Sequence record: MH494197.1
DNA from: Escherichia phage CMSTMSU
Length of the DNA: 64,000 nt
Strand: one strand, 5' to 3'
The position numbers and the translations under genes are program-made. The notes below the pieces were generated by a model. The model searched no databases. It saw only the letters and a list, made by a program, of their open reading frames with translations, and was not told where the DNA came from. Within the stretch, counting starts at the first letter, position 1. Each line of letters starts with the position of its first letter. Below are positions 1-64,000 of this stretch, in pieces.

Positions 1-221
1 AATATATAGATTTGATACTAAACGGTTAGTTGGGAATAATGTAATTCTAATCTTTGATAAATCTGGACTTACGTTTGCTTGTATATTATAATCTGTATAA
101 TCTGAATATTCAACTCGTGTAACTGGTGAAGTGCATTCAAATAATGAATCATTACTAGTTCCAACTGAATATAATCTTTCATAAATTTTCAAATTATTAG
201 CACTTGTGTAGTTAACACTTC

Positions 222-1456
222 TTAAGGTTTGACCAGAAAACCAGTAACCTTAGCAAAAGTACTCATAGTACCATCTTTAATACTACTTGTATTAACAGTA
301 TATAATGTTAAAGCCAAACCATAGTTTGCTATAGTAGTGTCTTTGCACCACACAAATACTTTATCATTGACGATATGTGCATATAATGGTTTATCTGTAC
401 CAAATGATGTAGCAGCGATAGAAGCGTGAATATGTGCAACTTCGTTAAATGTACCATTTGTTAAAGTGAAAATATAATTACTTGCACTAGATAGGCTAAC
501 TAGTAATTCATAACCATTCGTTCCGATAAACTGTTTAACATTTTCAGTACTTGGAAGAATTCTAGGATGATATTTTGATGTAGTACTGATAACACTACTT
601 TGTGTTAGTGCATCAATATTACGCAAATCACGAATGAATGCATAGTAATATCCTTCAGTACTACCATTTGTACCAGCACGTAATACCACACCAGTACCAT
701 CATCTTCGACTATTGTTGGTTGCATACGGTATACATCTGAAAGCGACGTTGCCTTCGTATGAACCATTAACGTTTAATGGTAGATAATCCATTTCTATAC
801 GGGAGATTGGTAACATATCAAGTATTTTTGAACTTCTGATCTTTTATAAATTGGATAGTCAACAATACCTGTATTTGCGTCTGGTGCTGTACCATTAAAA
901 GTACGCATAGCGTACTTTCCACCAATTGCCAAATTTCCAAGTATAGCAGCACTACCAATGATGCGTTTGGATGACATATTCTTTTCCTTTAATTACCAGC
1001 CTAATGTACCAGTTTGTGTTGGATTTCCAGTACTGACTGGGAAAGATGAACCTTTTGTGTTGTACTTGGTCTGTATGTATTGAATCGTGATACGCGTTCA
1101 ATGTTGATAGCAGTAATACCAGAAGTTCCAACGGTAATAGTCCCGATGAACATTATAATCTGTGATTCTTGTAATTGTGAAGTTGAGATTCTATAAATTG
1201 GCTCACCCAGTACTAAAGTAGCGTATACATATTGTGTTTGTGTGCCTGATGCCACTGTTGGTGCTGTCACTGCAACAACAGGGTAATTATAAAGATAGCC
1301 ACCGATGAATGCAGGTATCTCTCGGTTAAAACGTAATGAATAACCGCTTGATGTAATTGACAAACTAGATACATCATAAAGTTCACCATATTGTGATAAT
1401 GGTAAACCGTTAACAATAGAATCAACTTCATCTTTTGTTAAGAGGGGAATGTACAT
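222..1456 (-). CDS. putative tail fibre/adhesin-like structural protein (frameshift-fragmented)
   Basis: ORF fragments 1001-1456, 795-977, 222-767; S/T/N/G/Y-rich; N-terminal LPLSQYG motif and DGTGVVLRAGTNGSTEG segment paralogous to 3810-4169; function inferred from composition only. Confidence 0.3.
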
Positions 1457-1590
1457 TCCCCATTTGCGTCTGTTCGATACGATACGTCATTAATATCACT
1501 AATAGATAGTCCAGTGTTTTTATTCTGGACTACGATTTGTGACATAGCTTCGATATCGGATCTTATAATATATGCCATAAGATTAATCCT

Positions 1591-2673
1591 TTACCAATTA
1601 ATTGTTCCTGTTTGTGACGGTAGACCATAACTAACTGGGAATGAAGAACCAGCAGCTTCAAGAGACGCACCGAAAATATCCAATCTTGAACGTTTTTGTA
1701 TGTTAACATTTGATATTTGTATTGAGTTTGTTTGTATAGTACCTATCCAGAAAATATTATATGCTGTAGTACCAGTCTCTGAAATAACATCAGTTGTTAT
1801 TACATATTTTGCATTACCTTGTTCCATTTTAACATATACATGAAATAATGTGTTTGCTGGATTAGCCTTAACTGTAGTTAAGTTTATACTAGTAATCGGT
1901 AATGTAAATGCTTTACCAGAAAGAATTACTGGAGTTTCTTCTGTGAAGTACACAATAAAACCTTGAGCAACGTCTTGTGAAACTACGTTAATCGGTGCAC
2001 CTTGAGCAGTCCAGTTATTATAATCAGCAATTGTAGTACCACATTTTGGAAAGTCATTTTGTTTACATAGTCTATTGCTTGGAAATAACCAAAACCAATA
2101 CCGTAAAGCTGCTGGTTGAATACCTTGCTCATAACTTGCATGTGAACCACTGATAATAAAACTATCAAATTGTGCAGTTGCTTTTGTTACATATGCTCTG
2201 AATTGGTGTGTGTTTGTATTACCAATAGTTGGGTGAGATAATGGGTCAGAACCACCTATGAAGTAGAAAGAACCACCATCATATATTGTTAAACCAACAG
2301 AAGACGATGCAAAACTACCATTACCATTTGGTGTAAAGTTACTTCCGTAAACGTTTTCTAGTACTAAACGCTTGAAGGTAATTGTAGTGATATTACCTGA
2401 ACGTGTATTCACATTCACTTCAGCAATTCTAATATAGTTCTGATATGTATTTGTAACTGTACTTAGCATTACAAATGCAGGTATATCAGTTTGTTGTGGA
2501 ACAAACAATGTCATATCTTTATAAGCAGCAGGAGATAAGTTCCAGTCGCTTAGTACTTTGGCGTATTCAGCATTTCTGAAATTATCAAGTACAGATTGAG
2601 TAACACTAATGATACCAGTTCCGTTCATATTTTTATCATATGATAGTGATTGGGAATATCTCTGACCTACCAT
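1591..2673 (-). CDS. S/T/N/G-rich fibre-like structural protein
   Basis: intact 360 aa ORF, many NxT/S sites, Gly/Ser/Thr/Asn-rich, ends PVSYGLPSQTGTINW; no catalytic motifs. Confidence 0.35.
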   Translation of the reverse strand: MVGQRYSQSLSYDKNMNGTGIISVTQSVLDNFRNAEYAKVLSDWNLSPAAYKDMTLFVPQQTDIPAFVMLSTVTNTYQNYIRIAEVNVNTRSGNITTITFKRLVLENVYGSNFTPNGNGSFASSSVGLTIYDGGSFYFIGGSDPLSHPTIGNTNTHQFRAYVTKATAQFDSFIISGSHASYEQGIQPAALRYWFWLFPSNRLCKQNDFPKCGTTIADYNNWTAQGAPINVVSQDVAQGFIVYFTEETPVILSGKAFTLPITSINLTTVKANPANTLFHVYVKMEQGNAKYVITTDVISETGTTAYNIFWIGTIQTNSIQISNVNIQKRSRLDIFGASLEAAGSSFPVSYGLPSQTGTINW

Positions 2674-2817
2674 GAATATCCCACCATTTGTAGTAACATT
2701 ATTACCACTAATGGAACTAATAAAACTCTGTTGTTCGTGTTATCTGTCACATTAGCACGTTCTGTTGTTGGCTCATAACCTTGTATGGTTCCACGTGATA
2801 AAGAATTAAACGTAAAG

Positions 2818-7089: not shown

Positions 7090-7127
7090 AGTACTGCTAA
7101 TATAAAACTGCCCAAATTAGCAGTACT
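7090..7127 (-). repeat. perfect 12-bp inverted repeat anchored on AGTACT
   Basis: AGTACTGCTAAT ... 14 nt loop ... ATTAGCAGTACT, next to the terminator at 7061-7088. Confidence 0.45.
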
Positions 7128-10351: not shown

Positions 10352-10356
10352 AATTT

Positions 10357-35139: not shown

Positions 35140-35148
35140 AACAGTTCC

Positions 35149-49224: not shown

Positions 49225-49479
49225 TTACAACCCCAACCTGCCCCATTTTTGGTGAATAGCAAAGACACAACTATCATAGAGATTAATACCAAGACGCTCT
49301 TCGTTGACATAAATCGTAACACCATCGATTGTCATGGTTATTTGGAAACGCATTGAACCTTCACTTCGTGATCGTGCACAGAAGCCAAGATAACGGTTGA
49401 TAATTGTATTGATTTTATCTGCCCATCCTTCCACATCTTTGGATGCACATAATTTAAAAAGATCATGACTTTGATTCAT
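49225..49479 (-). CDS. hypothetical protein
   Basis: 84 aa ORF. Confidence 0.3.
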   Translation of the reverse strand: MNQSHDLFKLCASKDVEGWADKINTIINRYLGFCARSRSEGSMRFQITMTIDGVTIYVNEERLGINLYDSCVFAIHQKWGRLGL

Positions 49480-49539
49480 GTAGTTCTCCGTTAATCAAGC
49501 ATAAGTGGCATCATCGCCCATATCTTTTCATAATCATAT

Positions 49540-49951
49540 CTTCAGTAAAACAAACGTTTTAGGTGCAGTATATGATATTGACAACCCAAATGGAAGTACG
49601 ATTGCATCATCAATTATATTATGAATATCAAACCATGTTTTACACAATCATATGGTGGAAGTTCATGTATTGTACTTAACTGAAAGTATTGTTCTTCACC
49701 AAATGTACTGCAATCAATATCACAAATTTTAGTGAATTGATGATTCCATTTAGATATAATACTGTTTTATTATTGAACATATTAGTTCTATGCATGAAAC
49801 CATTTCTGCTAATATGATTTGATATTGCGTTTTCTTCAATATCATTGCTTATTTTAAAATTCATGTCAAAGTTGTAGTGCGAACTCGACGATTCTTTGAA
49901 TTTTAAATGAAAATAACGATTGTTATTAATTTCCATTTCAATACAAAACAC
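49540..49951 (-). CDS. FQxS-module family protein (frameshifted)
   Basis: alternative frame of ORF 49676-49951 reads GEEQYFQLSTIHELPP. Confidence 0.35.
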
Positions 49952-50053
49952 ATCTGAATCAAAACGATTAAACTTGTAATCGTTGTCTTCAGGTAGAGTT
50001 TGTAATTTTTCATAACACCAAGCATAGGGTGCACTAAGCTTCTAATAAAATCA

Positions 50054-50446
50054 TTAGTTATTTTCATAGTATTCCTTTAGAACTTTAAATGATTCAACAA
50101 TACTATCTTGTGTGTAATTAGAACTATATACAATTGCATTTGATTTGATTGACCACAGATATGACATAAAGGTTATAACACTACTACATGAACTTAATGT
50201 ATTGTTTTGGAATTCATTTTCTTCAATGTTATCAGTACTGGTATTGATGAATTGGATAGTATCTTGTTTCTGATTAGACATTGAAACTAAAGTACAATCA
50301 GTATAAGGAGTGTACAAAAACGTCTCATTACTAATTGAACTATCATTAGTATATGATGGTTTGGTAATATAAATCAAACGCATGATATCACGCTCAATAC
50401 CCGATTTACGACTTTCCACTAAAGAAATCATATCTATATTTTTCAT
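50054..50446 (-). CDS. FQxS-module family protein (variant)
   Basis: 130 aa; EENEFQNNTL. Confidence 0.4.
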   Translation of the reverse strand: MKNIDMISLVESRKSGIERDIMRLIYITKPSYTNDSSISNETFLYTPYTDCTLVSMSNQKQDTIQFINTSTDNIEENEFQNNTLSSCSSVITFMSYLWSIKSNAIVYSSNYTQDSIVESFKVLKEYYENN

Positions 50447-50555
50447 ATGATCAACATTGACATGGAACTTTTGTTTAGAATTACATCTTTTGGGGAATTT
50501 TTATATGAAGATAAGATCTCATACATCTCAACTAATTCTCGTGCATTTAATAAAC

Positions 50556-50981
50556 TCATGTTTTGTCTCTTAATGAAAGAATATCCTTAGTATAAACTGA
50601 TACAGAAATGTGATTATATTTCATCATTAATTTATACACATAAGAAGCTAGTACTAAATCGTAAATTAATTTAGTATCATACAGTACTCCGTATTGTAAA
50701 GCAAGTGAATCAATATCATCTTTACTTTCAATATCCAGAAATGTGCCGAAATATGTAGTACCGTGGAGATGAAAATTGGAATTAATGCAATCAATGCATT
50801 CATTGTCCAACAGAGTAGATGATGATGCCCTCGGTGAATCCCAAATAGTCACTGCGTGTATGCCCTCAACGAACAAATCTATCCATATTTTGTGTCGTTG
50901 TCTTTTTGTTTTATAATTTTCTGGATTTGAAAGTGTAGTTTCAATTATATCCCATATGTATAAGCATTCATCTCTTGTCAT
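50556..50981 (-). CDS. hypothetical protein
   Basis: 141 aa ORF. Confidence 0.35.
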   Translation of the reverse strand: MTRDECLYIWDIIETTLSNPENYKTKRQRHKIWIDLFVEGIHAVTIWDSPRASSSTLLDNECIDCINSNFHLHGTTYFGTFLDIESKDDIDSLALQYGVLYDTKLIYDLVLASYVYKLMMKYNHISVSVYTKDILSLRDKT

Positions 50982-51099
50982 TATAGCACCTTATCCATTG
51001 CTGCATTTAATGCTTTTAAACGATCAACATTCAAAGTATTGAAGATGTACGTTCCTAAAATGTGGAAATCGAACTGGTTCTTTTTGTATGTGTGATAAA

Positions 51100-51555
51100 T
51101 TAAACTACAAAAACAACAGTACTAAGAACCTCTTCCGGTATAACGGTGCTCATCTGAAACAGTTCTTCATCAACTGTACTTGATTCTGGATTGATAGCTT
51201 TTAACTCATACTCTTTATCACCGAATAGTACTTTAATATTATATAAAACACCAACAGTACTAATATGAAATGGATGGTGTGAAAAACTTCCATCATCATT
51301 AATTTGGATATCGGATCTAATCTCGCACTCTTCATTACTTTTACTATTATTTTTACAATACAAATATTCCGCACCAGAAATAGTAAGAATACCGTGATCG
51401 TAATATTCTTTGGACAAACATTTAGATGAAAATGACACATCACGAATGAGGTAATGTTTGTTAATTTCTTTGGCACTACCAACAATGTGTAGCATCTTTG
51501 TGCTGATATCATATAGCTGTTGGTGTCGGGCTGTCATATAACTATAAGCGTTCAT
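51100..51555 (-). CDS. FQxS-module family protein
   Basis: 151 aa; DEELFQMSTVIPEE. Confidence 0.45.
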   Translation of the reverse strand: MNAYSYMTARHQQLYDISTKMLHIVGSAKEINKHYLIRDVSFSSKCLSKEYYDHGILTISGAEYLYCKNNSKSNEECEIRSDIQINDDGSFSHHPFHISTVGVLYNIKVLFGDKEYELKAINPESSTVDEELFQMSTVIPEEVLSTVVFVV

Positions 51556-52122
51556 ATGTATCCTTGATGTTTTGATTGCCGTGTAGCTCTTTTAATGTAT
51601 CGGATTCACAGTTAATGAACTTACTATACATTACCAATTCACCAGTGTCAATAGCTTTTGCAGTTTCATAGCAAAGCATCATGTACTCAAACTCCTTGAA
51701 GTTGTCAAGTACTGATCTCTGGAAAATGTATGCTTCACGAATGTCTTCACTTTGATCTAGTTCTGGTGGAATTTCCAAATATGTATCATTCTCTACGTCA
51801 TCAAAATTAGATTCAACAATTCGATTAATATCTTCGTGTAAAGCATTGACAAATATCATGTTTGGAGTAATGGAACCGATTTGCTCACTATGCCTTGATG
51901 TGCGGATATACATTGCCATAGTATCCCATGAACCTTTTTCGTCGTTCCATAATCGTAAACTTTATAAGACTCCAGTACTACTGAACCAAAACGATATGGT
52001 GATTTGCATTCAACTTTAAGACGATAATTTCCAATAGGCTCATGTTCAGTAATGTTGTGCTTTTCAGATAGTTCTGCAATGTCATGCATCAATTTCATAA
52101 TTTGAATGTGTTCAGCTTGCAT
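51542..52122 (-). CDS. FQxS-module family protein (frameshift-fragmented)
   Basis: ORFs 51856-52122 and 51542-51919; EAYIFQRSVLD. Confidence 0.4.
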
Positions 52123-52270
52123 TATAAGTCCTCTAATTTAACAGGTACATGTTCATTGATGAACGTCTTAAGAGCCAGTACTAGATCTTCTAATTCTTCT
52201 GTACTGAATTTTAATATAGTTTTAAAGATTATCAATTCATTTCTTTCTATAATCTTTGGAATTTCATATG

Positions 52271-52684
52271 CTAACATAAGATTGCGAACAGTACCAGCGT
52301 TGTGTATGAGGTTCGCATTGAATAAAAGTACATCGTACTCGTCTTTTTAATTTTATAATTGTACTCTTCAATTACTTCATGTGTGTATGTATTCTTATAG
52401 GCAATTTTATTTTTATGAAATTTATAACCAACAGTAACACTATCATCATAAAATGTAGAACGATAATCTTGTTTTCTATCGCCGGACGAAATGATGTGTA
52501 ATGCTGTGTATTTGTCCTCAACATCTAACTCAATGTTTGCATAACTGTTAACGGTTTCATTCTTTAGGACGTTAATGTTATATTTCTCATTAACTTTAAT
52601 GTACTGGCGTGAACCATTATCATCAATGAACTTAAAACAATGCTTTACCAACAATGTGATTTCTTTAATTAATTCAGTACTCAT
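52271..52684 (-). CDS. hypothetical protein
   Basis: 137 aa ORF, C-terminus continues in another frame to about 52130. Confidence 0.3.
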   Translation of the reverse strand: MSTELIKEITLLVKHCFKFIDDNGSRQYIKVNEKYNINVLKNETVNSYANIELDVEDKYTALHIISSGDRKQDYRSTFYDDSVTVGYKFHKNKIAYKNTYTHEVIEEYNYKIKKTSTMYFYSMRTSYTTLVLFAILC

Positions 52685-52747
52685 ATCTTCTCCTGTACTC
52701 TGTTAAAAGCGATTATAACACACCTGAATGCTCATGTAAAGCACTAA

Positions 52748-52778
52748 ACACAAAAAGACCCATAAGGGTCTTTATTTT
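52748..52778. terminator. rho-independent terminator-like hairpin
   Basis: AGACCC-ataa-GGGTCT followed by TTATTTTGG and preceded by an A-run. Confidence 0.5.
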
Positions 52779-53049
52779 GGTAAAACGCTGTCAATGTACG
52801 CTAGAGCCTCATCTCGGAGGTACGTTCCATCTATTGTTATGTAATAGTTCTTAGGATATCACTCCCAATCTTCTCGTAAATTTTCATACATGATATCACA
52901 TCTTCATCACAAATGGTACTCAATTGAAACTGTACTTCATCAGTTAAAGGTACGATATCATGTTTAGATGGGGTTGGTATTTTCATTCAAAACAATATCA
53001 AACAAATTAGGAGTATTCTTTGACGAAATGTAACGATGTTTACTACGAA

Positions 53050-53842
53050 TTACCATTCTCGACAGAGAAATACTGGAACTCCATCTTGGTCCACATCTTC
53101 GTATGTTAACGCAATTAACATTTCATAATAATCTTGGAATTTCATTGATGCATAATATGTTTTGTCCTCACCGTACATTCCAAATGATTTGAATTCAATG
53201 TCACCTACATTGTGTGTATCGCTATCACTATTCACGAATTTTAACAGACTGTTGATTAGTCTGATTAGAATATCATCTTTATTCATTATCAGATAACTCC
53301 CTGTGCATGTTGTATAAATCTCTAAAGTCCTGATAGAAATCTTTTCTTCAAGAATATCTTTTAAACTAGGAATCTCATCCATAATCTCATCGATATCAGT
53401 TTCAATAGTAAAACCTGATTTATAATTTTGTAAGAGATAACTAAAAGCAACAAGATAAAGAATTTCATTTGGTTTATGGATTAACATGTGTTGGAACATA
53501 ACTGATTCTAAATCAGATTCAGTACTAAGGTCAGCATAACATGTATCGTTGGTGTCAATTCGTACTTTACTTGAATTTGGATTCCATGTAAAGCAATGTG
53601 TTCCAACTGTTCCCAAACATCCTACTCTTGTACTATCATTTGTTCCCAAAAGATATCAAAATACGTTTCATCTGTATAATCGTATTTTTGTACTTTACCT
53701 TTTTAAGGCATAAATCATTATCCTTTCGAAAAGTTTTAGATGATAGTGTATCAATGATGCACATTAATGTTTTTGCAAATGCAATACAATGACGTAATTC
53801 AAGTCTATGGAAATTATAATTAGTAAAATTCATAAAATTCAT
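53050..53842 (-). CDS. FQxS-module family protein (variant, frameshift-fragmented)
   Basis: ORFs 53636-53842 and 53050-53649; LESVMFQHMLI. Confidence 0.35.
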
Positions 53843-54032
53843 AATTGTACCTTCAATATTTTATCAGCAATTGATATAACCTTGTCATTGAATACATTAC
53901 CAATCTCAATTCTTATATACATCGCAGGTGGAATCTTTCCCTGAAGTGCATAATATGTTTGTATACCTAAGTACTCATTATTTGATAATGAAAATTTGAT
54001 TCTCTCCATATCTATGTCTGATTTTGGTAAAT

Positions 54033-54381
54033 CTAGTAGTTCATGGTGGTAGTCAACATTTTCAGTGTATATTGATTTAAGTAATTTGAATGATCACTAC
54101 TAATGTAGATGCTATCATCACGAATAATTACTTTATAATCAGAAGGTTCAAACTTATCTTTAGGAGAAAAGAAGACATCATCTATCTTCTTCTCGTATAC
54201 CGAATAACAATTTACCATCGTACTTTACATCAAGCATATTACCTAGAATAGTAATTACACAATGTTCATCAATGTCATGACGTAATGAACGAGTCTTGTA
54301 TTTTGGGTTAATGAAAATTTTCATTAATTTTATACAAATGTCGGCAATGCATTTTACATTATCATTTTCTATGTACATCAA
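54033..54381 (-). CDS. hypothetical protein (frameshift-fragmented)
   Basis: ORFs 54178-54381 and 54033-54218. Confidence 0.3.
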
Positions 54382-54418
54382 AACCCTCTTTAATTCTTTT
54401 ACATTTTAATGAATACTT

Positions 54419-54853
54419 TCATTGCAGAGATCTCAAAAGATAATGATTTAAAATTGCAGTACTTTTAAAGTACGACATAATGAATAGCATTTTGAGTTCT
54501 TTTTCTGTGTAAATTAAACTATTTTGAAAGTAACTTTCTTCTGATAAATCATCAAGAAAAGGATATACAACTCCATTTGGAGTCAAGAACATGACACGTT
54601 CACTCCAAGATCTAAATGAAATGTAATCAGTCTTACCACATTCATATAAGGAGTTTATCATTCCATCAATCATTAAGGAGAACTCAATACTGTATCCTAA
54701 TCTTTGACACTTGTATCTCTTATCTTCTTTCTTTGTAATTACGAAGTGACGACCCAATGAGTCTTTGTTATCGAAAATGAAATCAACTGTCTCTAAACAC
54801 TCCTTAGCGAACTTCATAGTTTCTCTGTACTTTCGGTTCATTAGTCTCTCCAA
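54419..54853 (-). CDS. FQxS-module family protein
   Basis: 144 aa; SEESYFQNSLIYTEKELKMLFIMSYFK. Confidence 0.5.
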   Translation of the reverse strand: MERLMNRKYRETMKFAKECLETVDFIFDNKDSLGRHFVITKKEDKRYKCQRLGYSIEFSLMIDGMINSLYECGKTDYISFRSWSERVMFLTPNGVVYPFLDDLSEESYFQNSLIYTEKELKMLFIMSYFKSTAILNHYLLRSLQ

Positions 54854-54859
54854 ACTTTA

Positions 54860-55250
54860 CGGAAGTGTTTCTCGTAGAACTCATCATCACTTAACATATA
54901 ATCAGGTGTTTCTACTTCTATGGGTTTGTAGAATGTTTCTGGAATGTGTGTAATTTTATTTGGTTGTACTTTATGTTCGCGTAAAACCTTCTGTATAGCT
55001 CCTAGGCGTTGTAAATCAATACAGGTGGGCAGAACTAAGCTGTACTGAAATAGCTCATCAGGGTCATTATAGATACATCCTTGGCTTGTTTGATTTTATT
55101 GTTGGCATCAATGAATATATCAAATCCAAGTACTGCATTATAGCTTACATATGTTGTTTTGTTTTTGTCAATAGCTGCACTTAAACTATATCCATATATT
55201 CCATGTTGGTCAACAATGCATCGTTGCATAATTTTAATCATTTCGAACAT
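54860..55250 (-). CDS. FQxS-module family protein (frameshifted)
   Basis: ORF 55035-55250; alternative frame reads DPDELFQYSLVLPTCIDLQ. Confidence 0.35.
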
Positions 55251-55259
55251 AATTTACCT

Positions 55260-55595
55260 CGTATGTGTTATAATTCCACGTTTTAACACTATCCATTTGT
55301 ATATCCTGAACTTCATGGAAATATTTAAGTACCTTCTGGTATTCCATTAGTTCGTACACATCTTCAGTATTGACAGTGCTCTCCTGAAACAATTCCTCTT
55401 CTGATAAAGTACTATAATCAGGATTTTTATTTCAGAATATATCTCATTCATATATGAATCATTTTGGTAAATCTGTAGATAAAACTGATTATATTCAGGG
55501 ATATAGGTTACGAAATGGTTCTTGATGAATTCATATCTTGAAGCAAAGCAATCATTGCCATCCGTCATGTACTGAATTGTTGTTGTATTATGCAT
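55260..55595 (-). CDS. FQxS-module family protein (frameshifted)
   Basis: ORF 55347-55595; alternative frame reads LSEEELFQESTVNTEDVYEL. Confidence 0.35.
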
Positions 55596-56070
55596 TCAAA
55601 TAATCCACGCATTTATGGTATACATCTAAATCTAAAAAGAATCGTTGTTTGTATTTGTAATGATGAAGTAGTGCACCATAAAGTAATATAGCATTAAGTA
55701 CTTTTGCATCATGAATACAAGACCCTTGGAAGTACATTTCTTCAGTCATGAAAACTAACTCATTGTAAGGGATAAGCACTGAATCTCTAAATGTATCAAT
55801 GTTAATCTTCAAATCGGACCCTTGGCAATATGAAATATATTCACCTCTGTAATGAAAGTCATTATCGTCAAAGTACTCAGCATATACTTGATTGTTCCTA
55901 TTATTTTTAAAGGCAAGTCTTCCTTTGGTTGAACTGAATTGGTCATATTGGAACATTCCACCAAAAGGCATTCCACCGAAAGGTTGGGGACTTCTGAACT
56001 CCTTTGCAATGCGATGAATGTTAGATGCAAATTCTAAAACACCATCGTAATCATATTCTGTTGTAATCAT
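55588..56070 (-). CDS. FQxS-module family protein
   Basis: 160 aa; TEEMYFQGSCIHDAKVLNAILLYG. Confidence 0.5.
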   Translation of the reverse strand: MITTEYDYDGVLEFASNIHRIAKEFRSPQPFGGMPFGGMFQYDQFSSTKGRLAFKNNRNNQVYAEYFDDNDFHYRGEYISYCQGSDLKINIDTFRDSVLIPYNELVFMTEEMYFQGSCIHDAKVLNAILLYGALLHHYKYKQRFFLDLDVYHKCVDYLNA

Positions 56071-56113
56071 AGACCATTTTTCTCCATGTACTCAATGATT
56101 TCATCTACGAAGT

Positions 56114-56400
56114 TTAAATCCATATAGAATCTATCATTTGCGTCATTGAGTTCATCTTTAAGTACTGTAAAAATTGTAGAACTAAACACGATTCTCTCAT
56201 TGTACAAAGTACTGTACTGGAAGAATTCTTCTTCTGATCTAACATTAAATGTGTCATATTCATCATCAACATCAGATCAGGATGATAGTACTTAAAACTA
56301 TCAGATGTATGGAAACAATATGAGATAAAATCCTGATGGTGCATCGTCAAGTACACGAATACCACAGAAATTCTCATCTGTAGTATGCAACAAATTGCTA
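56114..56400 (-). CDS. FQxS-module family protein (frameshifted)
   Basis: alternative frame of ORF 56114-56377 reads SEEEFFQYSTLYNERIVF. Confidence 0.35.
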
Positions 56401-56601
56401 TTCATTGACAAATAATTTTTGTACGCATAAAGTGTGCATCTTGGGAGAATTATATTCTCTTTAACTGTTACAAGGAACTTATGAAGTTTAATGATATTTT
56501 GTGCGATTTTTTGTGCATTGCTAAATGATAGGTCTTTGACATTGTGATATAACCCTTTACAATTAATATAAAGAGATTATATCACAAAGATTTGGAGGGT
56601 G

Positions 56602-57134
56602 TCAAGAGTTCTCACGAAGTTCTACCATTTCTTTCCATACTAAATGGTAATCTTCTAAGTCCAGATAGAAGTCTTCATTTAAGTGCTCATATAAGTACTT
56701 GTACATGAATAGTACACCTAAATTATATTCAGTATTAAGTAATGATTGTTGGAAGTAGTTTTCTTCATTTAGTTCTATATCCATGAACTCAAATCTACCT
56801 AGACCTTTTAATGTACGTATCTCAACATGTGAAGTATCTGTTTTACTGAAGCACATGAATCCACCTCTAAATTCGGATCATATTCACATTCATACTGTCC
56901 ACTGTTATTATAGAAATCTCTATTACCATCCTTATCTTTTGGCTTAACAACTGATACGTGAAGGTCGTCATCTTTGTACATTGTACGTTCTGGCGTTTTC
57001 ACACATTTTAACTTATTTTCTTTAATGTACTTGATAATATCAATTATATCTTGTGCAGTACTGATTGCTGCCTCAAACGTATCCAACTTAAGATGATTGT
57101 ATAGAGTTCCCTCGTTCTTTATTTTATCTAACAT
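56602..57134 (-). CDS. FQxS-module family protein (frameshift-fragmented)
   Basis: ORFs 56808-57134 and 56602-56856; NEENYFQQSLLNTEY ... FYLDLEDYH. Confidence 0.45.
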
Positions 57135-57140
57135 AAAACC

Positions 57141-57479
57141 TCATAGTTCATACATCTTTGATTTGAATTGCATTGGTCCACCAACTTCACATGGATAATT
57201 TTCCATAATACGATTCAAAAGTATCTGGTACTGTTGTAGTACTTCAATTTCCAAATGTATACTACTATCCAGTACTAATGACTCCTGAAACAATTCACCT
57301 CTATCTAAACCTGAAAAATCATTTATAGTTAGCATTGGCTTATCATTTGTACGCAATGTAAATGATTCCTCATTTCGGATTAATGTACAGAATTCATTAT
57401 GTTTTCTGTTGTAATCCATTTTAACCAATAATAACTTGGTGTGAGTTGCGTACATTATTTTTACTAATTCAGTCTTCAT
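57141..57479 (-). CDS. FQxS-module family protein
   Basis: 112 aa; DRGELFQESLVLDSS. Confidence 0.5.
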   Translation of the reverse strand: MKTELVKIMYATHTKLLLVKMDYNRKHNEFCTLIRNEESFTLRTNDKPMLTINDFSGLDRGELFQESLVLDSSIHLEIEVLQQYQILLNRIMENYPCEVGGPMQFKSKMYEL

Positions 57480-57750
57480 AACGGAATAAAATTCTCCTGT
57501 ACTGCTCCGGCTTAGTACTCAATCTCTTCACTGGATAATTGTCGAAGATCCTTTTCATTTCTTTCTGGATTAAACAAAGAAAATCAAAATCACAATAGTA
57601 TTTTTTATCCCATACTAAACTTTCTTGAAACAACTCATCTTCTTGCATTAGCGTAGTATCAATTGTATCTTCACGTGTATTTGAGTACGCTTCATGACAT
57701 TGAAAACCATCCTCGGATAATCCTAATGTATATGCCGCCATTTCAAACAT
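57469..57750 (-). CDS. FQxS-module family protein
   Basis: 93 aa; QEDELFQESLVWDKKYY. Confidence 0.5.
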   Translation of the reverse strand: MFEMAAYTLGLSEDGFQCHEAYSNTREDTIDTTLMQEDELFQESLVWDKKYYCDFDFLCLIQKEMKRIFDNYPVKRLSTKPEQYRRILFRYED

Positions 57751-57832
57751 ATCATCATTTGTCTTTAACGAAAGTAAACAACAAACGTATTTTTCGTTGT
57801 GTAGTAAGTAATGCTAATGGTATTCATTGGAT

Positions 57833-58435
57833 TTAAACCTCAGTATAAAGCTTACAATAGCTTTCATCGAAATCAAAAATACTTCTCAAGAACTGACAAA
57901 GGTCAGTAAAAATATTTACATTTGCTATATACACATTATCAAATTCTGTTCTTTCGAAGAATGTATGCATAGAATTTGTAATATATCTCATTGCAGATTC
58001 ACGCTGCATTGTTATATCATTTGTGAACATCGCATCTTCATCAGTACTGACTAATTCAATATCAAATGATTGCATATATGGGATACTCTTCCCTAGTGCA
58101 AAGCTATCACCGTATGATGCTTCAACTGCACCTTTAGAATACACCAATTGATATAAGTCCGAAATAGGGTTATAAAAAGTACGACATATTGATGAACATA
58201 ATTTATTATCTATCCAAAAGAAAACCCTATTTGTATTACCGTCAAATGCTATACGCAATCCATCACCATCTAACGATATATCACCATCGAGATTAAAAGA
58301 GAACTGAACTAATGCTTTTTCTAAGTCCATTCTTTTGTGATAAATGATTTCTTGCATATAGATAATATCATTTACTAATTTCTTAAAATACAAATGAACC
58401 TCAGTACTACAACATTTATTTGCATTTAATAACAT
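57833..58435 (-). CDS. hypothetical protein
   Basis: intact 200 aa ORF. Confidence 0.4.
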   Translation of the reverse strand: MLLNANKCCSTEVHLYFKKLVNDIIYMQEIIYHKRMDLEKALVQFSFNLDGDISLDGDGLRIAFDGNTNRVFFWIDNKLCSSICRTFYNPISDLYQLVYSKGAVEASYGDSFALGKSIPYMQSFDIELVSTDEDAMFTNDITMQRESAMRYITNSMHTFFERTEFDNVYIANVNIFTDLCQFLRSIFDFDESYCKLYTEV

Positions 58436-58484
58436 AGTAGATCCTTATACATTGCATGTATTCTTACAATGTCTCTGTAATAAC

Positions 58485-58918
58485 TCATATCTTCACGATT
58501 ATCATTAAAACAGTAACACTGAATACAGCAGTACTAATTGAACTATCAACAATGTACTCTTTTAATTTATTATAAAGATATATGCACTTAGTAGATGTAT
58601 CATCCCACATAAGACTATTTTGAAAGATGTTTTCTTCTGTGTTAGGATATAAGTACTGCTCAATCTTGTACCCCAATGAACTATCACAGTTTTTATATAC
58701 AGAAATAGATGGACATTCATATTGCACATAATACTAATAACATTATCATTGTATGTAGAAATTAAACTGGTACTGGATGCTACACTTTCATCGTAATTCA
58801 GTACTGAAATTCTTGCATTATCTGTGCAGTACAGATGTTTCATTCCACCTCTCATAGCTAGAGTAAGAAATTTATCAGTGAACCATATTCCTTTTGTTTT
58901 CAGTATAGTTTCATGCAT
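58485..58918 (-). CDS. FQxS-module family protein (frameshift-fragmented)
   Basis: ORFs 58562-58918 and 58485-58727; TEENIFQNSLMWDD. Confidence 0.45.
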
Positions 58919-58966
58919 AAGATAAGTTTCAATGAAGATTTTACACGCTCAAATGCCAAGTCAAGT

Positions 58967-59158
58967 TCATTGTACATAACGAATATCCTTCTGTAAGGAA
59001 TCAATATATTCTTTAACAACTTGTTCCTGATACTGTGTGCCCAAATACATCAGTACTTTTAACTCTTTGAATTCAGTACTATATGAGTCGGTTTGCATCA
59101 TTTTAGAAGAATATATATTGAATAGTTTAGCAATATCATCTTGGTCTATTATTTTCAT
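58967..59158 (-). CDS. hypothetical protein
   Basis: 63 aa ORF. Confidence 0.3.
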   Translation of the reverse strand: MKIIDQDDIAKLFNIYSSKMMQTDSYSTEFKELKVLMYLGTQYQEQVVKEYIDSLQKDIRYVQ

Positions 59159-59203
59159 TAACCCTCTTCTGAATAAGTTCCTGTAAGTGCTGAATATAAC
59201 CCT

Positions 59204-59841
59204 TCATTGCAACATCCTGTTTGTTAGAGCCAACGAAGAACAAGAGCTTAAAGTCATGGTAATCCATTTTGGTTTAGTAGTGAACCATATGTCCCACACT
59301 GCACTCACAGTTCTCATGTATTCAATTCGATTAAATGTTTTGAATACTTCATCGAAATCAACCTTTAATAAATTGATATTTAAATTACTGTTAAATGCCA
59401 TCTGCAATTCCATATAGAACTGAATAATAGCATAGTCAGGATCAGTACAAGATAGTTGAAAGCACTGTTCTTCAAATGAATTGTAATTGTACTTAGGAAT
59501 ATTAATAGTACGATATAACTCTGGATAACCCCATATCATAGTGTACACGTCAATTTCAGTACACTTTTTCTTAAAAGTCATCTGTCGAATAGTTTCAGAT
59601 CTGGATTCAAGGTATACAACATTCTTATGAACTGCTGAACCAATTGAAATCAATGATGTATCAATGACGTGTTTTCCACGTATCTCACACTTCTGGAATG
59701 CACCATTCCCTGTAAAAGTTTATGGAAATCGTACTTCTCACTAATAACTGTACTAGGATCGATTAAACCAGTACTGCATTTTTCAGTACTGGTACGATAG
59801 TGCGAATCTTTTTGATAAATCTTGTAATGCATCATAATCAT
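59204..59841 (-). CDS. FQxS-module family protein (frameshift-fragmented)
   Basis: ORFs 59650-59841 and 59204-59653; FEEQCFQLSCTDPDY. Confidence 0.45.
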
Positions 59842-59914
59842 TAATGTTAATTTTTCTCAAAGGATGCCTCTTCTATAGTAACGAAATCAACTAACCTATC
59901 AAGTTTTTCAGTGT

Positions 59915-60298
59915 CTAGATAAAATATATCCAGTACTGACTTCTGATATAGTACACTAAATGTACATAGATTGTCAAGTGTTCCTTCATTATAAACAGTA
60001 CTTCGAAGTACCCTTCTTCTGTACTCAGAGATAAAATATCAGAAATTTTAAAAGATTCTTCATTCTCATGACGCTCTATCGTAACTTCATCATATTTTCT
60101 GTTCAATGAAATATAATCGTATGCTAATTCAATAGTACTACAGTTGTTGTTGCTAGTGTCAAATAAAGAATCAATTGTAATCTTCGTGCCATTAGAAACT
60201 TCTCTTCGTTCATCATCTACGTATTCAGGATTTTCTTTGAAGAACTTAACAACTTTTAGAATATCATTTGCTTTCTTGATTGCACTTTCGTAACTCAT
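59915..60298 (-). CDS. FQxS-module family protein (variant)
   Basis: 127 aa; STEEGYFEVL. Confidence 0.4.
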   Translation of the reverse strand: MSYESAIKKANDILKVVKFFKENPEYVDDERREVSNGTKITIDSLFDTSNNNCSTIELAYDYISLNRKYDEVTIERHENEESFKISDILSLSTEEGYFEVLFIMKEHLTIYVHLVYYIRSQYWIYFI

Positions 60299-60382
60299 TT
60301 TTTCTGGACTCCATATATATCACCTGATTTAGTTCATATACATAATCTAAATCAATGAATATAGAATTATTAAAGTTCTCTT

Positions 60383-60565
60383 TCAGAAATGCATTAAAAC
60401 TACTAAAGCTCTTAATGCACTATTTGGGTATATAGTACTGTACTGGAAGTAAGCATCTTCTGAATTTAAGAATAGTACTTCTTCTTCGGTGAATTCAAAA
60501 TATTTTCCACTTTCATCGATTGAATAGAAAGTTCCAGAATCCCATACGAAGTACTTGAATTCCAA
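60383..60565 (-). CDS. FQxS-module family protein
   Basis: NSEDAYFQYSTIYPN; N-terminus likely further upstream. Confidence 0.4.
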   Translation of the reverse strand: MEFKYFVWDSGTFYSIDESGKYFEFTEEEVLFLNSEDAYFQYSTIYPNSALRALVVLMHF

Positions 60566-60734
60566 ATCATAATCATGGGACTCGTACTTATATTCATTAC
60601 CTAATCCTAGAATATCTGTACCAACACTTATAGTACTAATATATGCCCTTTATAGTCTAAGTACTTTACATTATTTTGAAAGAACTTTACTATATTAACT
60701 AATTCCTCAGCGTGCTTAAGATCACTTTCGTACA

Positions 60735-61109
60735 TTATATTTCAATCTCTATATATTTTTGGGTAATTAAGTAATCCCAGTAGTACTTCACATGTTTTTG
60801 TATCTCAAGTAAAGCATAAAAATTAATTCTCTTGTCCCATACAAGTGATTCCTGAAAAATAAATGATTCATGGTCATCTCTGTAATCACATTCAAGGAAG
60901 TCAGGAATATAATCACAATCGTGAAGATATTCAATCATTAAAGATTCATTACATCTTCTAACGGCAAGGTGCTGGAAATTATCATGATCGAAGAAATACA
61001 TTAAACTAATTGTACCGGAATGTACTGAATACTGTATAAGAATTTCATCGTTTGCCCTTATGTTCGGTACGTACATATTCATAATCCAAATAAAATCTTG
61101 TGCTATCAA
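60735..61109 (-). CDS. FQxS-module family protein
   Basis: 124 aa; DDHESFIFQESLVWDKRINFY. Confidence 0.45.
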   Translation of the reverse strand: MIAQDFIWIMNMYVPNIRANDEILIQYSVHSGTISLMYFFDHDNFQHLAVRRCNESLMIEYLHDCDYIPDFLECDYRDDHESFIFQESLVWDKRINFYALLEIQKHVKYYWDYLITQKYIEIEI

Positions 61110-61227
61110 TACTTTTAAAGTACCACATAATAACTAAAGTATCTAGTACTTCATCATCATACAAAGTACTATTCTGAAAGTAATACTCTTCACTATCCCA
61201 CGGACCTTTCAGTACTTCAAAGTTCAA
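61045..61227 (-). CDS. FQxS-module family protein
   Basis: VLKGPWDSEEYYFQNSTLYDDEVLDTLVIMWYFKS ... FYLDYEYV; may be fused to 60735-61109 by a frameshift. Confidence 0.45.
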   Translation of the reverse strand: MNFEVLKGPWDSEEYYFQNSTLYDDEVLDTLVIMWYFKSIDSTRFYLDYEYVRTEHKGKR

Positions 61228-61229
61228 TT

Positions 61230-61745
61230 TTAACGGTCTACTGCGATTATAAAACGGATTTCACCTCCATATGCATAACTAATAAATTCTGCATCTGGAT
61301 TGTATTGTGAAAAATCTGCTGGACTTTTGGAATTCAAACCAAGAATAACTGTAGTTGTAGCAAAATCACTATCCTTGTAGTAGTTACCATTCTCGGCTTT
61401 GTATACTTCTTCGAACTTCCCAGCCTTAATATCTTCAATATATGCCTGTAGTTCTTTTGCTTTATCAAGAGCACTTCGTAATGACATTATCTTCCCTACA
61501 GTATTCTCTACGTATTCATAATCGAAATAGAAACTACTAGAGCCAATACTTTTAAAGTACCACATAATTACAATAACATCTAATTCTTCTTCATTGTACA
61601 CAGTACTGTTCTGGAAGTAATATTCTTCACTATCCCACGGACCTTCCAGTACTGAATACGGAATGATTGTGTCATCATCATCGTAATCAGGGCTGTAAAT
61701 TATAATATCTTCATCTCTACAATAACTAATGTACTGATTGTACAT
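61230..61745 (-). CDS. FQxS-module family protein
   Basis: 171 aa; PYSVLEGPWDSEEYYFQNSTVYNEEELDVIVIMWYFKS ... FYFDYEYV. Confidence 0.5.
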   Translation of the reverse strand: MYNQYISYCRDEDIIIYSPDYDDDDTIIPYSVLEGPWDSEEYYFQNSTVYNEEELDVIVIMWYFKSIGSSSFYFDYEYVENTVGKIMSLRSALDKAKELQAYIEDIKAGKFEEVYKAENGNYYKDSDFATTTVILGLNSKSPADFSQYNPDAEFISYAYGGEIRFIIAVDR

Positions 61746-61905
61746 ATGATATTCACAGTCATCAGTATCACCCGTATCAGTGTGTAGTACTAACGTTTCT
61801 GCACATATCTCTGACTCATCATAATCGTCGCGGTCTTTTACAAAAATTCAGTATCAGATGTTTTATACACACGGCACTGAACCTTCTTGTACCATAATCA
61901 TGTAA

Positions 61906-62103
61906 TCATGAATCTTCTTTGCTTCTTTCAATGCACTTTCTAATGACATTACTAATCCCTGTACTTAAATATTCACATGCTCCCCAGTCAAGGAAGAAGG
62001 GTTCAAAATTCAATTCCTTAAAGTACCACAAAACAACCAAGGAATCAAGCATTTCTTGGTTAAAAATAAGACTCTGTTGGAAGTAATACTCTTCAGTACC
62101 CAC
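61906..62103 (-). CDS. FQxS-module family protein
   Basis: TEEYYFQQSLIFNQEMLDSLVVLWYFKE; N-terminal part in another frame to about 62350. Confidence 0.45.
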   Translation of the reverse strand: MGTEEYYFQQSLIFNQEMLDSLVVLWYFKELNFEPFFLDWGACEYLSTGISNVIRKCIERSKEDS

Positions 62104-62363
62104 GGCCCATCAAGTACCCGAAGTCAACAGGTGTATTTGATGTGTCAAAAGTAATCTTAGTACGGAATATATACAAAGAAACTAGTATATTGACTACATG
62201 AAGAGTACTGTATAGTATTGTCTTTATCATGGCCCATAAGTAAAATATCATCAGAGTATGTCTTTATACCTGATAGATAATACTCATTACCAAATGCACT
62301 TACTTTATCACCATAGAAACCACTTTTATGTTATCGTGGAAGTGATGTATTTTGTGTGCCAGT

Positions 62364-62738
62364 TTAAGTGCACTTGCTAAACTCATATATCCTCTTTAAT
62401 AACTCGTAGTAGATCCAAGTCCAGATAGAAGCTAGGACAATCGGTATTATTAAAGTACCACAGAATGACAAGCTTGTCAAGCACATATTCCTCGTAGATA
62501 GTATTCTGCTGGAAGTAGAACTCTTCACTTCCCAGTCATTATCCAGTACTGAATACGGAAGATGTTTCTCTGCTGCACCAGTTATAATGTCAGTATATTG
62601 TATTAAAATATCAGCATCACGACAGAAGTACATGTAATTATCTTCCAGATTAACATCACACCCAGTGAGTGTTGTTTCAGAAGAATCTAAGTTTTCTTCG
62701 TACATGTGAATGTACTCACTACTGTCATCGTATATCAT
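62364..62738 (-). CDS. FQxS-module family protein (frameshifted)
   Basis: LPYSVLDNDWE then, after a 1-nt shift, SEEFYFQQNTIYEEYVLDKLVILWYFNN ... FYLDLD. Confidence 0.45.
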   Translation of the reverse strand: MIYDDSSEYIHMYEENLDSSETTLTGCDVNLEDNYMYFCRDADILIQYTDIITGAAEKHLPYSVLDNDWEVKSSTSSRILSTRNMCLTSLSFCGTLIIPIVLASIWTWIYYELLKRIYEFSKCT

Positions 62739-63124
62739 TCGACAATAAGCTTTACCTTCCTTGAATAGATACCCATTGAGACGATTGAGTACTATTTCCT
62801 TTTACATAAATCAATTAACTTAGCAATTTCTAATGCTCTTGTAAAACTCATATCAACTCCTGTGTTGTGTCTTGATATAATCTCGGTACACCATGTGAAT
62901 ATTAGCTATATACAATTCACTAATATCATATGTACCGAAGTTCATGTCATTCCTAATGCTGTTGTTATGTCTAATATCAATTACGAATCGTCGAAGTATT
63001 GTATTCATGAATGATTCCATTTGTTCTTTTTATTCATAGCTTAAAACGATACCTATCTTTGAATCAGACTCTATACAGATTCTTCTATATTCTTTCATCT
63101 TCTGTTGGAGTTCAATTACTTCCT

Positions 63125-63448
63125 CTAGTGTACACAAGTACTTTTGTCAAATATTAATGACTCTTGAAATATTTCAGCCTCACCATGTACTGTTGTATAG
63201 TCTTTCATATTTTCTACAACTGTTCCTTTGGACTGATAATCAATGAAGCTAAAGTAAGCACCATTAAATTTAATGTACTGATCCATTTTGTGTTCATAAT
63301 CACCTTTGTTAAGATTGCAATACACTTCTAGCGAAGTACTAATCTTAGGTATAAACATAGAAAAATCATATTCCATATTACTCACCTGTATTGAAATAAT
63401 AATTACTTGTTGTTGGTGTAGATGTATCAAAGGTGTTTTCTTTAACAT
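63125..63448 (-). CDS. FQxS-module family protein
   Basis: N-domain MEYDFSMF ... CNLNKGDYEH and C-module HGEAEIFQESLIFDK. Confidence 0.45.
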   Translation of the reverse strand: MLKKTPLIHLHQQQVIIISIQVSNMEYDFSMFIPKISTSLEVYCNLNKGDYEHKMDQYIKFNGAYFSFIDYQSKGTVVENMKDYTTVHGEAEIFQESLIFDKSTCVH

Positions 63449-63743
63449 ATCTCTTCATTTCATTTTGTATAAAAATCATATCTTCTATTGTACATGAGTA
63501 CTTATTCTTGTCAAACACCAAAGAAGCTTGAAATAGTTCAGCATTATCTAGTACTGTATAATCTGTAATACTTTCAGAGTTATAGTCGAAGTCATCATGT
63601 AATACATCAATGAAATTAAAACACAAATCGGAGTACTGAATATATAAACTCAACTCATGTTCCGAATCACCCTTGATAAGATTACAGCATAAATCCCATC
63701 CTGTTCTGGACCTGCAAACGTACATTGAATAATCATATGTCAT
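63378..63743 (-). CDS. FQxS-module family protein
   Basis: 121 aa; N-domain MTYDYSMY ... CNLIKGDSEH; C-module YTVLDNAELFQASLVFDKNKY ... IQNEMKRY. Confidence 0.5.
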   Translation of the reverse strand: MTYDYSMYVCRSRTGWDLCCNLIKGDSEHELSLYIQYSDLCFNFIDVLHDDFDYNSESITDYTVLDNAELFQASLVFDKNKYSCTIEDMIFIQNEMKRYVKENTFDTSTPTTSNYYFNTGE

Positions 63744-64000
63744 TATGTAATTCCTATATTGAATTTGTATTCTTGATTAATACTTACATTGGATGTATTC
63801 AAAGCAGCATACTCTTTCATTTCATTTTGTATAGCAATTACTTCTTCTAGTGTACACAAGTACTTCTTATCAAATACTAATGCAGCTTGGAATAGTTCAG
63901 CGGCATCCATTACTGTATAATCCGGCATATCTTGATGTGGATACTGTAATGAATCGTAATCAATAAATGTAAATTTACCCTGAGTGTAATGAATATACTC
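63743..64000 (-). CDS. FQxS-module family protein (5' end beyond window)
   Basis: YTVMDAAELFQAALVFDKKY ... IQNEMKEY; upstream in-frame coding continues to the window edge. Confidence 0.45.
   Translation of the reverse strand, partial: EYIHYTQGKFTFIDYDSLQYPHQDMPDYTVMDAAELFQAALVFDKKYLCTLEEVIAIQNEMKEYAALNTSNVSINQEYKFNIGIT

Follow-up and report, generated by a model that had tools for sequence, protein, structure and literature searches.

Highly iterated palindromes are known from cyanobacteria, in which HIP1 (GCGATCGC) occurs far above expectation, about every 300 bp, in all reading frames as well as in non-coding DNA (Elhai 2015, PMC4390886). HIP1 is the palindromic extension of a shorter core, and variants that differ in one outer base are its commonest neighbours (PMC4390886). 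According to the searchable literature, iterated palindromes have been described only in cyanobacteria. Here, we report such an element, the hexamer AGTACT, in a clade of culturable Escherichia coli phages with a 350-kb genome, on the basis of a stretch of 64,000 nucleotides from Escherichia phage CMSTMSU (sequence record MH494197.1, the whole stretch being called the window in the following) and of related genomes. A preliminary description of the window had likened AGTACT to HIP1, and the statistical features named above are indeed shared by both. AGTACT differs from HIP1 in that it is found in a virus clade and not in a cellular genome, is an AT-rich hexamer or octamer, has no evident cognate methyltransferase and shows no sign of conversion-type gain. 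Our preferred reading, to which we give an even chance, is that selection maintains AGTACT as the recognition site of a symmetric protein and that the sites act as a dense self-mark.

The window contains 214 copies of AGTACT, dispersed over its whole length (1..64000) at one per 299 bp. The expectation is 21.5 from base composition and 18.8 from dinucleotides, confirming the roughly ten-fold hyper-abundance that had been noticed initially, and AGTACT ranks first in abundance among the 4096 hexamers of the window. The enrichment is also seen against a third-order Markov model, a control proposed in the preliminary description (82 copies expected, z=14.5). The hand counts given there were correct to within one copy, with 12 copies in 1-4200, 6 in 9961-11880, 5 in 30001-32000 and 13 in 60001-62000. 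The densest kilobase (59701..60700) has 10 copies. Spacing is near Poisson (mean 299 bp, coefficient of variation 0.9); apart from an excess of pairs 18-23 bp apart there is no helical phasing or clustering, and this possibility was rejected.

The hexamer is the centre of a graded signal. The extended palindrome CAGTACTG was found 49 times in the window (0.89 expected) and TCAGTACTGA 12 times (0.10 expected), and the flank information is confined to the positions directly adjacent to the hexamer, with C at -1 in 96 and G at +1 in 97 of the 214 copies. The full site can be written 5'-HAGTACTD-3' with the optimum CAGTACTG. The core GTAC alone is 2.6-fold enriched. Variants that differ in one outer base (TGTACT, AGTACC, AGTACG) are 2.9- to 3.2-fold up, compared to 0.4- to 2.2-fold for internal variants, and the non-palindromic forms AGTACN and NGTACT are both about 2-fold up. 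AGTACT is the only palindrome of the window that exceeds 1.5-fold, and no neighbour word of AGTACT is depleted in the hexamer counts of the window.

The window is related to the PBECO4/121Q-like jumbo coliphages, which belong to the genus Asteriusvirus in the Rak2-like group. Its closest matches are vB_Ec-M-J, Turkey3, Ecwhy_1 and fEgEco12 with about 98% identity; 121Q and PBECO4 match at 83-90%. All genes called in the window are carried by the minus strand. Comparison of the first 25 kb with Turkey3 revealed 117 indels, all 117 of which are deletions in the window (for example at 752, 2103, 2900, 3373 and 3874), which affect homopolymers and all CCWGG (Dcm) sites. As this signature shows, the window was assembled from error-prone long reads by use of a methylation-naive basecaller and was left uncorrected, and its reading frames are therefore fragmented, with NrdD, PhoH, ligase and Dam being frameshifted; the NrdD, PhoH and ligase genes are uninterrupted in the relatives. 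The motif itself is unaffected by the assembly errors, since only 1 of 90 AGTACT sites differs from two close references (pooled), compared to 12 of 12 CCWGG sites.

The preliminary description had proposed that the enrichment is genome-wide, and the relatives of the window bear this out. 121Q has 903 copies of AGTACT where about 100 are expected and 194 copies of CAGTACTG where 4.4 are expected. Every 10-kb bin of 121Q is enriched, 3- to 19-fold, showing that the motif is not confined to a paralog array. Enrichment is lowest in the replication and structural modules and highest in the arrays of tiny early genes. AGTACT is also the top hexamer in Klebsiella phage RaK2 (103 versus 9.2 expected), Yersinia phage fHe-Yen9-04 (74 versus 8.9) and Cronobacter phage GAP32 (79 versus 8.7), such that the motif is enriched 6-11-fold in four enterobacterial Rak2-like genera, which infect four host genera. 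These four phage genera share only about 29% average nucleotide identity (PMC13070987). The motif is not enriched in phage T4 (12 versus 8.8 expected) or in a 50-kb sample of E. coli K-12 (3 versus 4.8; 0.06/kb), so that the density of AGTACT in the phage is about 50 times that in the host DNA. Since four genera on four host genera are enriched in the motif and E. coli is not, it is a trait of the phage lineage and an old trait of the enterobacterial Rak2-like phages. In the related Pseudomonas jumbo phage PA5oct (MK797984 100,001-135,000) a single copy was found where 10.2 are expected, which is an about ten-fold depletion. In the full-text literature searched, including work on RaK2, 121Q, CBB, Sharanji and fEgEco12 and comparisons of jumbo phages, the AGTACT motif of this clade is not described.

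AGTACT-rich sequences were also found among viral contigs. One contig (L002-L005) is an Asteriusvirus. Two further contigs, L014 (IMGVR_UViG_2639762939_000003) and L025 (IMGVR_UViG_2651869657_000002), are related to each other, without recognisable kinship to Rak2-like phages, and have AGTACT among their top two hexamers (35 versus 3.3 and 35 versus 4.3 expected, respectively). L014 shows the same CAGTAC/GTACTG extension and has no DNA match in the phage collection. A reader protein shared with L014 and L025 was considered and rejected, as the only common protein is a DUF4326 protein, which is frequent in T4-like phages.

The preliminary description had also stated that AGTACT occurs in all three codon phases and is a DNA-level signal and not a conserved peptide. 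Both statements hold. The window genes contain 68, 30 and 55 copies in the three phases, each phase being 3- to 4-fold enriched, and their 153 copies compare to 44.5±5.6 in synonymous shuffles and to 19.7±4.6 when codons are permuted. A further null model was applied to the genes of 121Q and consisted of a shuffle that keeps each protein, its codon usage and its dinucleotides; even then, 689 copies were observed and 312.6±12.7 expected (z=29.5). A loss of the enrichment under a null model that preserves codons and dipeptides, which had been named as the outcome that would speak against a DNA-level signal, was thus not seen. Intergenic regions of 121Q are denser in AGTACT (4.2/kb) than coding regions (2.3/kb), although 76% of the copies lie within genes, evenly distributed along them. 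Copies are few in the 30 nt upstream of start and stop codons, and an excess is found directly after stop codons, in part because sigma70-like early promoters carry the motif in a fixed register.

The pressure for the motif has skewed the dipeptide and codon usage of the phage proteins. In the window, the dipeptides Ser-Thr, Val-Leu and Gln-Tyr, which AGTACT encodes in the three phases, are 1.7- to 1.9-fold above expectation, whereas the reversed dipeptides TS, LV and YQ are not, and 68 of the 119 Ser-Thr pairs in the window genes are encoded by AGTACT. AGT makes up 37% of the serine codons of the window, its usage being inflated by the motif. 121Q encodes a tRNA-Ser with the annotated anticodon ACT (ACU, which would read AGU; L123 25464-25555) and a tRNA-Thr(TGT) (27896-27969). 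The tRNA-Ser reading AGU may be a translational compensation.

The sites are unusually well conserved. In the alignment of the window with 121Q (83% identity), 141 of 204 AGTACT sites (69%) are intact, compared to 41% of hexamers in general and 43% of words of the same composition. Losses and gains were determined in three genomes with phage A4 as outgroup and with expectations from generic substitution rates. AGTACT was lost 10, 10 and 21 times where 25.8, 27.6 and 50 losses were expected, which is about 40% of the generic rate, and 39% of the AGTACT sites are common to all three genomes, compared to 9% of control words. Lineage-specific gains (15 and 14) roughly match the losses. In the comparison with the A4 outgroup, changes from a conserved one-mismatch neighbour to AGTACT are not in excess (8 versus 7.2 expected). 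This pattern points to purifying selection on individual sites at mutation-selection balance and not to a conversion process that manufactures sites. Biased repair of the very-short-patch type was rejected, because no neighbour word is depleted and the conversions do not exceed expectation. In total, about 900 positions per genome are kept by purifying selection, at a cost to codon and amino-acid choice.

The bases flanking the hexamer are informative about what might read it. In 121Q, the ten classes of N-AGTACT-N flanks fit the product of half-site weights of 6.6 for C, 2.4 for T, 2.3 for A and 1.05 for G, with enrichment descending from 44-fold for CAGTACTG over the mixed classes to 1.1-fold for GAGTACTC. 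Half-site weights that are symmetric and multiply (C>T≈A>>G) favour a homodimeric DNA-binding protein and are the main basis of the explanation we prefer. The preliminary description had listed modification, nicking, nucleoid binding and recombination as possible functions. Judged by the flank pattern, recognition by a symmetric DNA-binding protein fits best among the function classes; modification is disfavoured and a role as recombination hotspot is unsupported.

If a symmetric protein reads the motif, it might also be one of the host. The motif would then recruit or titrate a DNA-binding protein of the Enterobacterales, such as SlmA, and thereby manipulate the infected cell. The SlmA site is GTGAGTACTCAC, with an AGTACT core and conserved outer GT/AC and inner AG/CT, so that the core hexamer equals the centre of this site, and enrichment was seen only in phages of Enterobacterales, as the PA5oct count illustrates. 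The flanks, however, do not agree with SlmA. The SlmA-like G...C flank is the only class of 121Q that is not enriched, 12-mers of the type GT.AG..CT.AC are absent from the window and positions -3 and -2 are uninformative. Furthermore, the same motif is kept across four host genera, and host and phylogeny are confounded in PA5oct. Manipulation of a host factor is thus very unlikely, and SlmA was rejected as the cognate protein, as the G...C flank is the least favoured, no 12-mer resembles an SlmA-binding site (SBS) and GAGTACTC occurs only twice in the window.

A small number of copies is located in promoters and hairpins. Of 108 strong sigma70-like promoters in 121Q, 14 share the fixed register TTGACA-N9-AGTACT-G-TATAAT, in which the motif copy abuts the -10 element and its TG forms an extended -10; some promoters of 121Q also have a copy abutting the -35 element. 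Early promoters with this fixed register have their -10 elements for example at 92,636, 96,946, 107,531, 142,483, 145,513 and 149,153. A protein bound to the promoter copies would overlap the contacts of RNA polymerase. Of 29 promoter-like sites in the window, AGTACT is present in just one, a sigma70-like promoter TTGACA-N16-TACAAT on the minus strand (63487..63514) with AGTACT in the spacer. The intergenic hairpin mentioned in the preliminary description is present at 7090..7127, where two copies form the base of a 12-bp stem (AGTACTGCTAAT...ATTAGCAGTACT, fold -16.2 kcal/mol), and a second pair, CCAGTACTG-N7-CAGTACTGG, forms a 10-bp stem at 59768..59792 (-15.7 kcal/mol). Copies abutting -35 and -10 hexamers, together with such hairpin pairs, are probably the source of much of the surplus of pairs at a distance of 18-23 bp. 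Hairpin-forming pairs are a small minority of all copies, and promoter and hairpin copies together account for only about 3%. A general role as promoter or terminator element was rejected, as the copies lie mostly in genes, have no fixed position, are not restricted to intergenic regions and are rarely part of a promoter or hairpin.

These promoter copies are also part of what a neutral origin could draw on, in which AGTACT would be a by-product of mutation bias, of codon or tRNA usage or of the expansion of paralogous genes and promoters that bear the motif. The peak densities (19-fold at 130-150 kb of 121Q and about 6.6/kb in the terminal repeat of fEgEco12) are indeed found where tiny paralogous genes form arrays and their repeated promoters carry the motif, and the phage tRNA-Ser reads AGU. 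But only about 28 of the 903 copies in 121Q are part of strong promoters and all 10-kb bins are enriched. In addition, the excess survives all codon-aware null models, conservation is far above background, the flanks are graded as for a protein and four genera as distant as those described above share the motif. A neutral by-product is therefore extremely unlikely.

The Rak2-like phages encode two orphan methyltransferases, a C5-cytosine enzyme and a Dam-family N6-adenine enzyme. The gene for the latter (PF05869; 121Q gene 417) lies within the window (40238..40760, minus strand), frameshifted by assembly errors and assigned by family identification; presumably, its target is GATC. The C5 enzyme, encoded by gene 91 of 121Q (L123 12483-13343), is closest to mammalian DNMT3 catalytic domains, and its target-recognition region is very short. 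Neither CpG nor GATC is part of AGTACT. The DNA of RaK2 has methylated CpG according to bisulfite sequencing and behaves as Dam-, Dcm- and CpG-methylated in restriction assays (PMC3622015), and this CpG methylation fits the DNMT3-like enzyme. The DNA of fEgEco12 is cut as predicted by ten enzymes (PMC13070987) and is therefore not hypermodified; ScaI is not among the restriction digests reported for this phage. The miscalls in the window assembly point in the same direction, with 12 of 12 CCWGG sites and 13.5% of GATC sites affected, compared to 5.4% of GTAC sites, which is the background, and 1.1% of AGTACT sites. Base modification at AGTACT is disfavoured by these observations, which are indirect but agree with each other.

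It might nevertheless be that AGTACT is a methylation-linked HIP element, in which an orphan phage methyltransferase targets AGTACT or GTAC and methyl-directed repair creates and keeps the sites. HIP1, the closest described phenomenon, co-occurs with cognate orphan methyltransferases (PMC4390886), two orphan enzymes are available in these phages (the Dam-family one in the window itself), the 2.6-fold excess of GTAC and the abundance of outer-position variants are reminiscent of HIP1, and the reduced loss of sites is compatible with a repair that restores them. All of this is offset by the almost undisturbed AGTACT sites of an assembly in which methylated CCWGG sites are always miscalled, by the methylation reported for RaK2 (PMC3622015), which fits CpG and GATC enzymes, by the wide occurrence of homologs of both enzymes in unrelated phages and by the lack of both a conversion excess and a depleted neighbour word. 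We regard a methylation-linked element as quite unlikely. As motif partners, both enzymes were rejected individually, the C5 enzyme since it is DNMT3-like, RaK2 contains methylated CpG and homologs are present in phi92/rV5-like and Bacteroidota phages, and the Dam-family enzyme since its homologs are widespread in unrelated phages and basecalling is undisturbed at AGTACT. Among the annotated genes of 121Q, no AGTACT-specific pair of endonuclease and methyltransferase was recognisable.

The distribution of the motif changes abruptly near the end of the genome. In fEgEco12, which represents the lineage of the window and has experimentally mapped termini, motif density peaks in the direct terminal repeat (1-20,993) at about 6.6/kb. 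The last copy is located at 20,857 and the next one at 26,616, so that a motif-free gap of 5.8 kb starts within about 140 bp of the repeat boundary; this gap has no excess of GTAC either. On the other side of the repeat, the motif remains dense as far as the terminus. A short stretch bearing the motif follows the gap, and then, from 29,017 to 37,646, AGTACT is absent and about 40 copies of AGTACA are found on the coding strand, without a single TGTACT. In 121Q, the counterpart of the motif-free zone is 155,502-159,569 and the AGTACA island extends from 161,800 to 169,384, with 41 copies of AGTACA but none of AGTACT or TGTACT; GTACT, expected about 7 times, is missing from the top strand. The island is repeated in Sharanji (L137 3001-10581) and PBECO4 (L138 3001-10399). 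It is about 7-8 kb long with sharp borders, and 80-83% of its AGTACA sites are orthologous in 121Q, Sharanji and PBECO4. Since 23 of the 33 Asteriusvirus records contain it, with 81-94% identity, a recent horizontal origin was rejected, as was a sequencing artefact, because the island is reproduced in 121Q, Sharanji, PBECO4 and fEgEco12.

The AGTACA copies of the island behave like AGTACT elsewhere, being dispersed, present in all phases and showing the same preference for C and G in the flanks. They are thus half-sites in a single orientation. The window ends close to the island: position 64000 corresponds to 37,694 in fEgEco12, and only about 50 bp separate this position from the start of the island. 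The edge of the island is visible within the window, as AGTACA (minus strand; TGTACT on the plus strand) rises towards the right end, with 6, 11, 7 and 8 copies per 4 kb in 48001..64000, compared to 1-8 (mostly 3-5) further left. We know of no counterpart in HIP1 of sharply bounded islands that are motif-free or filled with half-sites and tied to a genome end.

An island with a single orientation near the genome end argues for a function linked to a polar process at that end. The unit that is read might therefore be the oriented half (C)AGTAC, recognised on one strand or in one direction by an enzyme that tracks along the DNA or processes it (for example a primase, a translocase, a nickase or a regulator of an exonuclease), and the palindrome would then be the most compact carrier of this unit in both orientations. 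Polar motifs like Chi and the FtsK-orienting polar sequences (KOPS) guide directional enzymes. The strictly one-way composition of the island, its conservation in three independently sequenced genomes and its position 30-37 kb from the mapped genome end, just past the terminal repeat, are in line with such a polar unit. However, outside the island it is the palindrome that is enriched, whereas AGTACN and NGTACT reach only about 2-fold, with little difference between the two; the modest excess of AGTACA on coding strands changes with the orientation of the genes, and amino-acid usage accounts for part of it. The two half-sites contribute symmetrically and multiplicatively to the flank preferences, and the sites do not fall on homology breakpoints. 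A Chi-like role is already filled by genuine host Chi, which shows an about 12-fold enrichment and a common orientation in the terminal repeat. Reading of an oriented unit is unlikely, but owing to the island it keeps real weight.

AGTACT resembles Chi (GCTGGTGG), the self-mark of RecBCD, in being a short word over-represented within genes, in its presumed role of separating own from foreign DNA and, for the polar AGTACA island, in orientation. Chi differs in being asymmetric, present about once per 4.5 kb and read on one strand, whereas AGTACT is palindromic and about 15 times denser. AGTACT shows no Chi-type asymmetry, as its flanks are symmetric too and polarity is seen only in the AGTACA island, and a Chi-like role is unlikely. 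For 62 homology breakpoints (against 121Q and A4), the median distance to the nearest AGTACT was 102 bp, compared to 96 bp for random positions, in a comparison of low power; a role as recombination hotspot was rejected, as the breakpoints are no closer to AGTACT than random positions are.

Chi itself is about 12-fold over-represented in 121Q (29 copies, 2.5 expected). The window contains CCACCAGC at 19000, 21326, 25883 and 33475 and GCTGGTGG at 41485. The copies are strongly co-oriented, since the 21-kb terminal repeat of fEgEco12 carries ten of them on a single strand (L139 590-19,625), and four of the five Chi copies in the window share their orientation.

Taken together, we prefer the explanation that AGTACT sites on double-stranded DNA are bound by a symmetric dimer, which would probably be encoded by the phage and conserved in the clade. 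Dense binding would label the genome as the phage's own, and as long as this unmodified genome is in one cell with the DNA of the host, the marking could serve to protect it, to organise it or to regulate it globally. The motif-free zone and the AGTACA island might be places where symmetric binding must be absent or directional, which would connect the mark to a polar process at the genome end, for example a stepwise entry of the DNA or the processing and packaging of concatemers. A more specific version would be a sequence-based self-recognition, in which a phage dimer reads about 900 sites of the CAGTACTG type to tell phage DNA from that of the host. It would be wired to the genome end, where the motif-free zone and the half-site island would make binding absent or directional and thereby control stepwise entry or the cutting of concatemers. 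This version builds on the lack of both hypermodification and a phage nucleus in Rak2-like jumbo phages, and we consider it possible but doubtful.

Several observations weigh against a self-mark that is read by a symmetric protein. The self-mark function is inferred from the contrast in density and the layout of the genome, and no reader protein was found in these phages, in which about 83% of the genes are without known function. A simple symmetric binder does not predict an island of AGTACA in one orientation, which suggests reading of one strand or in one direction. A repair system that restores sites would also explain the reduced site loss, a weaker constraint from protein coding may be all that lies behind the raised density in the early regions and the terminal repeat, and the absence of the motif from PA5oct, the most distant relative, is explicable by host or by phylogeny.

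A dense self-mark would share features with several known systems. The binding sites of SlmA in E. coli (SBS) and of Noc in Bacillus subtilis (Noc-binding sites, NBS) are likewise palindromic dimer sites that are found chromosome-wide and excluded from one region, the gap serving as positional information. They number tens per genome, compared to about 900 copies of AGTACT, and the phage motif lacks precisely those flanks that characterise the SBS, namely G...C and the outer GT/AC. The DNA uptake sequences (DUS) of Neisseria and uptake signal sequences (USS) of Haemophilus occur about once per kb, in genes and as inverted hairpin pairs downstream of genes, and are self-marks read by a protein. 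They are, however, non-palindromic 10-12-mers for transformation, and hairpin pairs are a small minority in the phage. Phage T5 has a first-step-transfer DNA that ends at an injection stop signal. It resembles the phages studied here in its long direct terminal repeat, its small early genes with strong host-type promoters and a special zone at the repeat boundary. Iterated palindromes are not known from T5 and a two-step entry of Rak2-like phages is conjectural, so that this resemblance is only a lead.

With a measurable purifying selection, flank energetics like those of a dimer and natural controls in the form of a motif-free zone and a one-orientation island, the phage clade offers new handles for the study of iterated palindromes. 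If AGTACT is a self-mark, large phages that have ordinary DNA and no nucleus-like shell would have a means to distinguish their own genome from that of the host, and it would provide a handle on the early biology of jumbo phages that are relevant for therapy. ScaI is expected to cut the phage DNA into more than a thousand fragments, and AGTACT can serve as a simple sequence signature for spotting the clade in metagenomes.

Two further properties of these genomes were observed. About 15 paralogous RCC1-like genes annotated as 'DNA condensation' (121Q L124 17089-31255; fEgEco12 L140 1-10732) form an array on the opposite strand, directly upstream of the region of tiny genes and the terminal repeat. 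Other palindromes are strongly avoided in the window, in the classic manner of restriction-site avoidance: 26 palindromic hexamers containing G and C have zero copies, GCGC is absent and GATC is present at 0.44 of expectation. Likewise, 24 such hexamers have zero copies in 121Q (348 kb; 3-47 expected each) and two more are nearly absent, GCGC is missing (178 expected) and GATC is at about 0.6, whereas palindrome avoidance is far weaker in RaK2.

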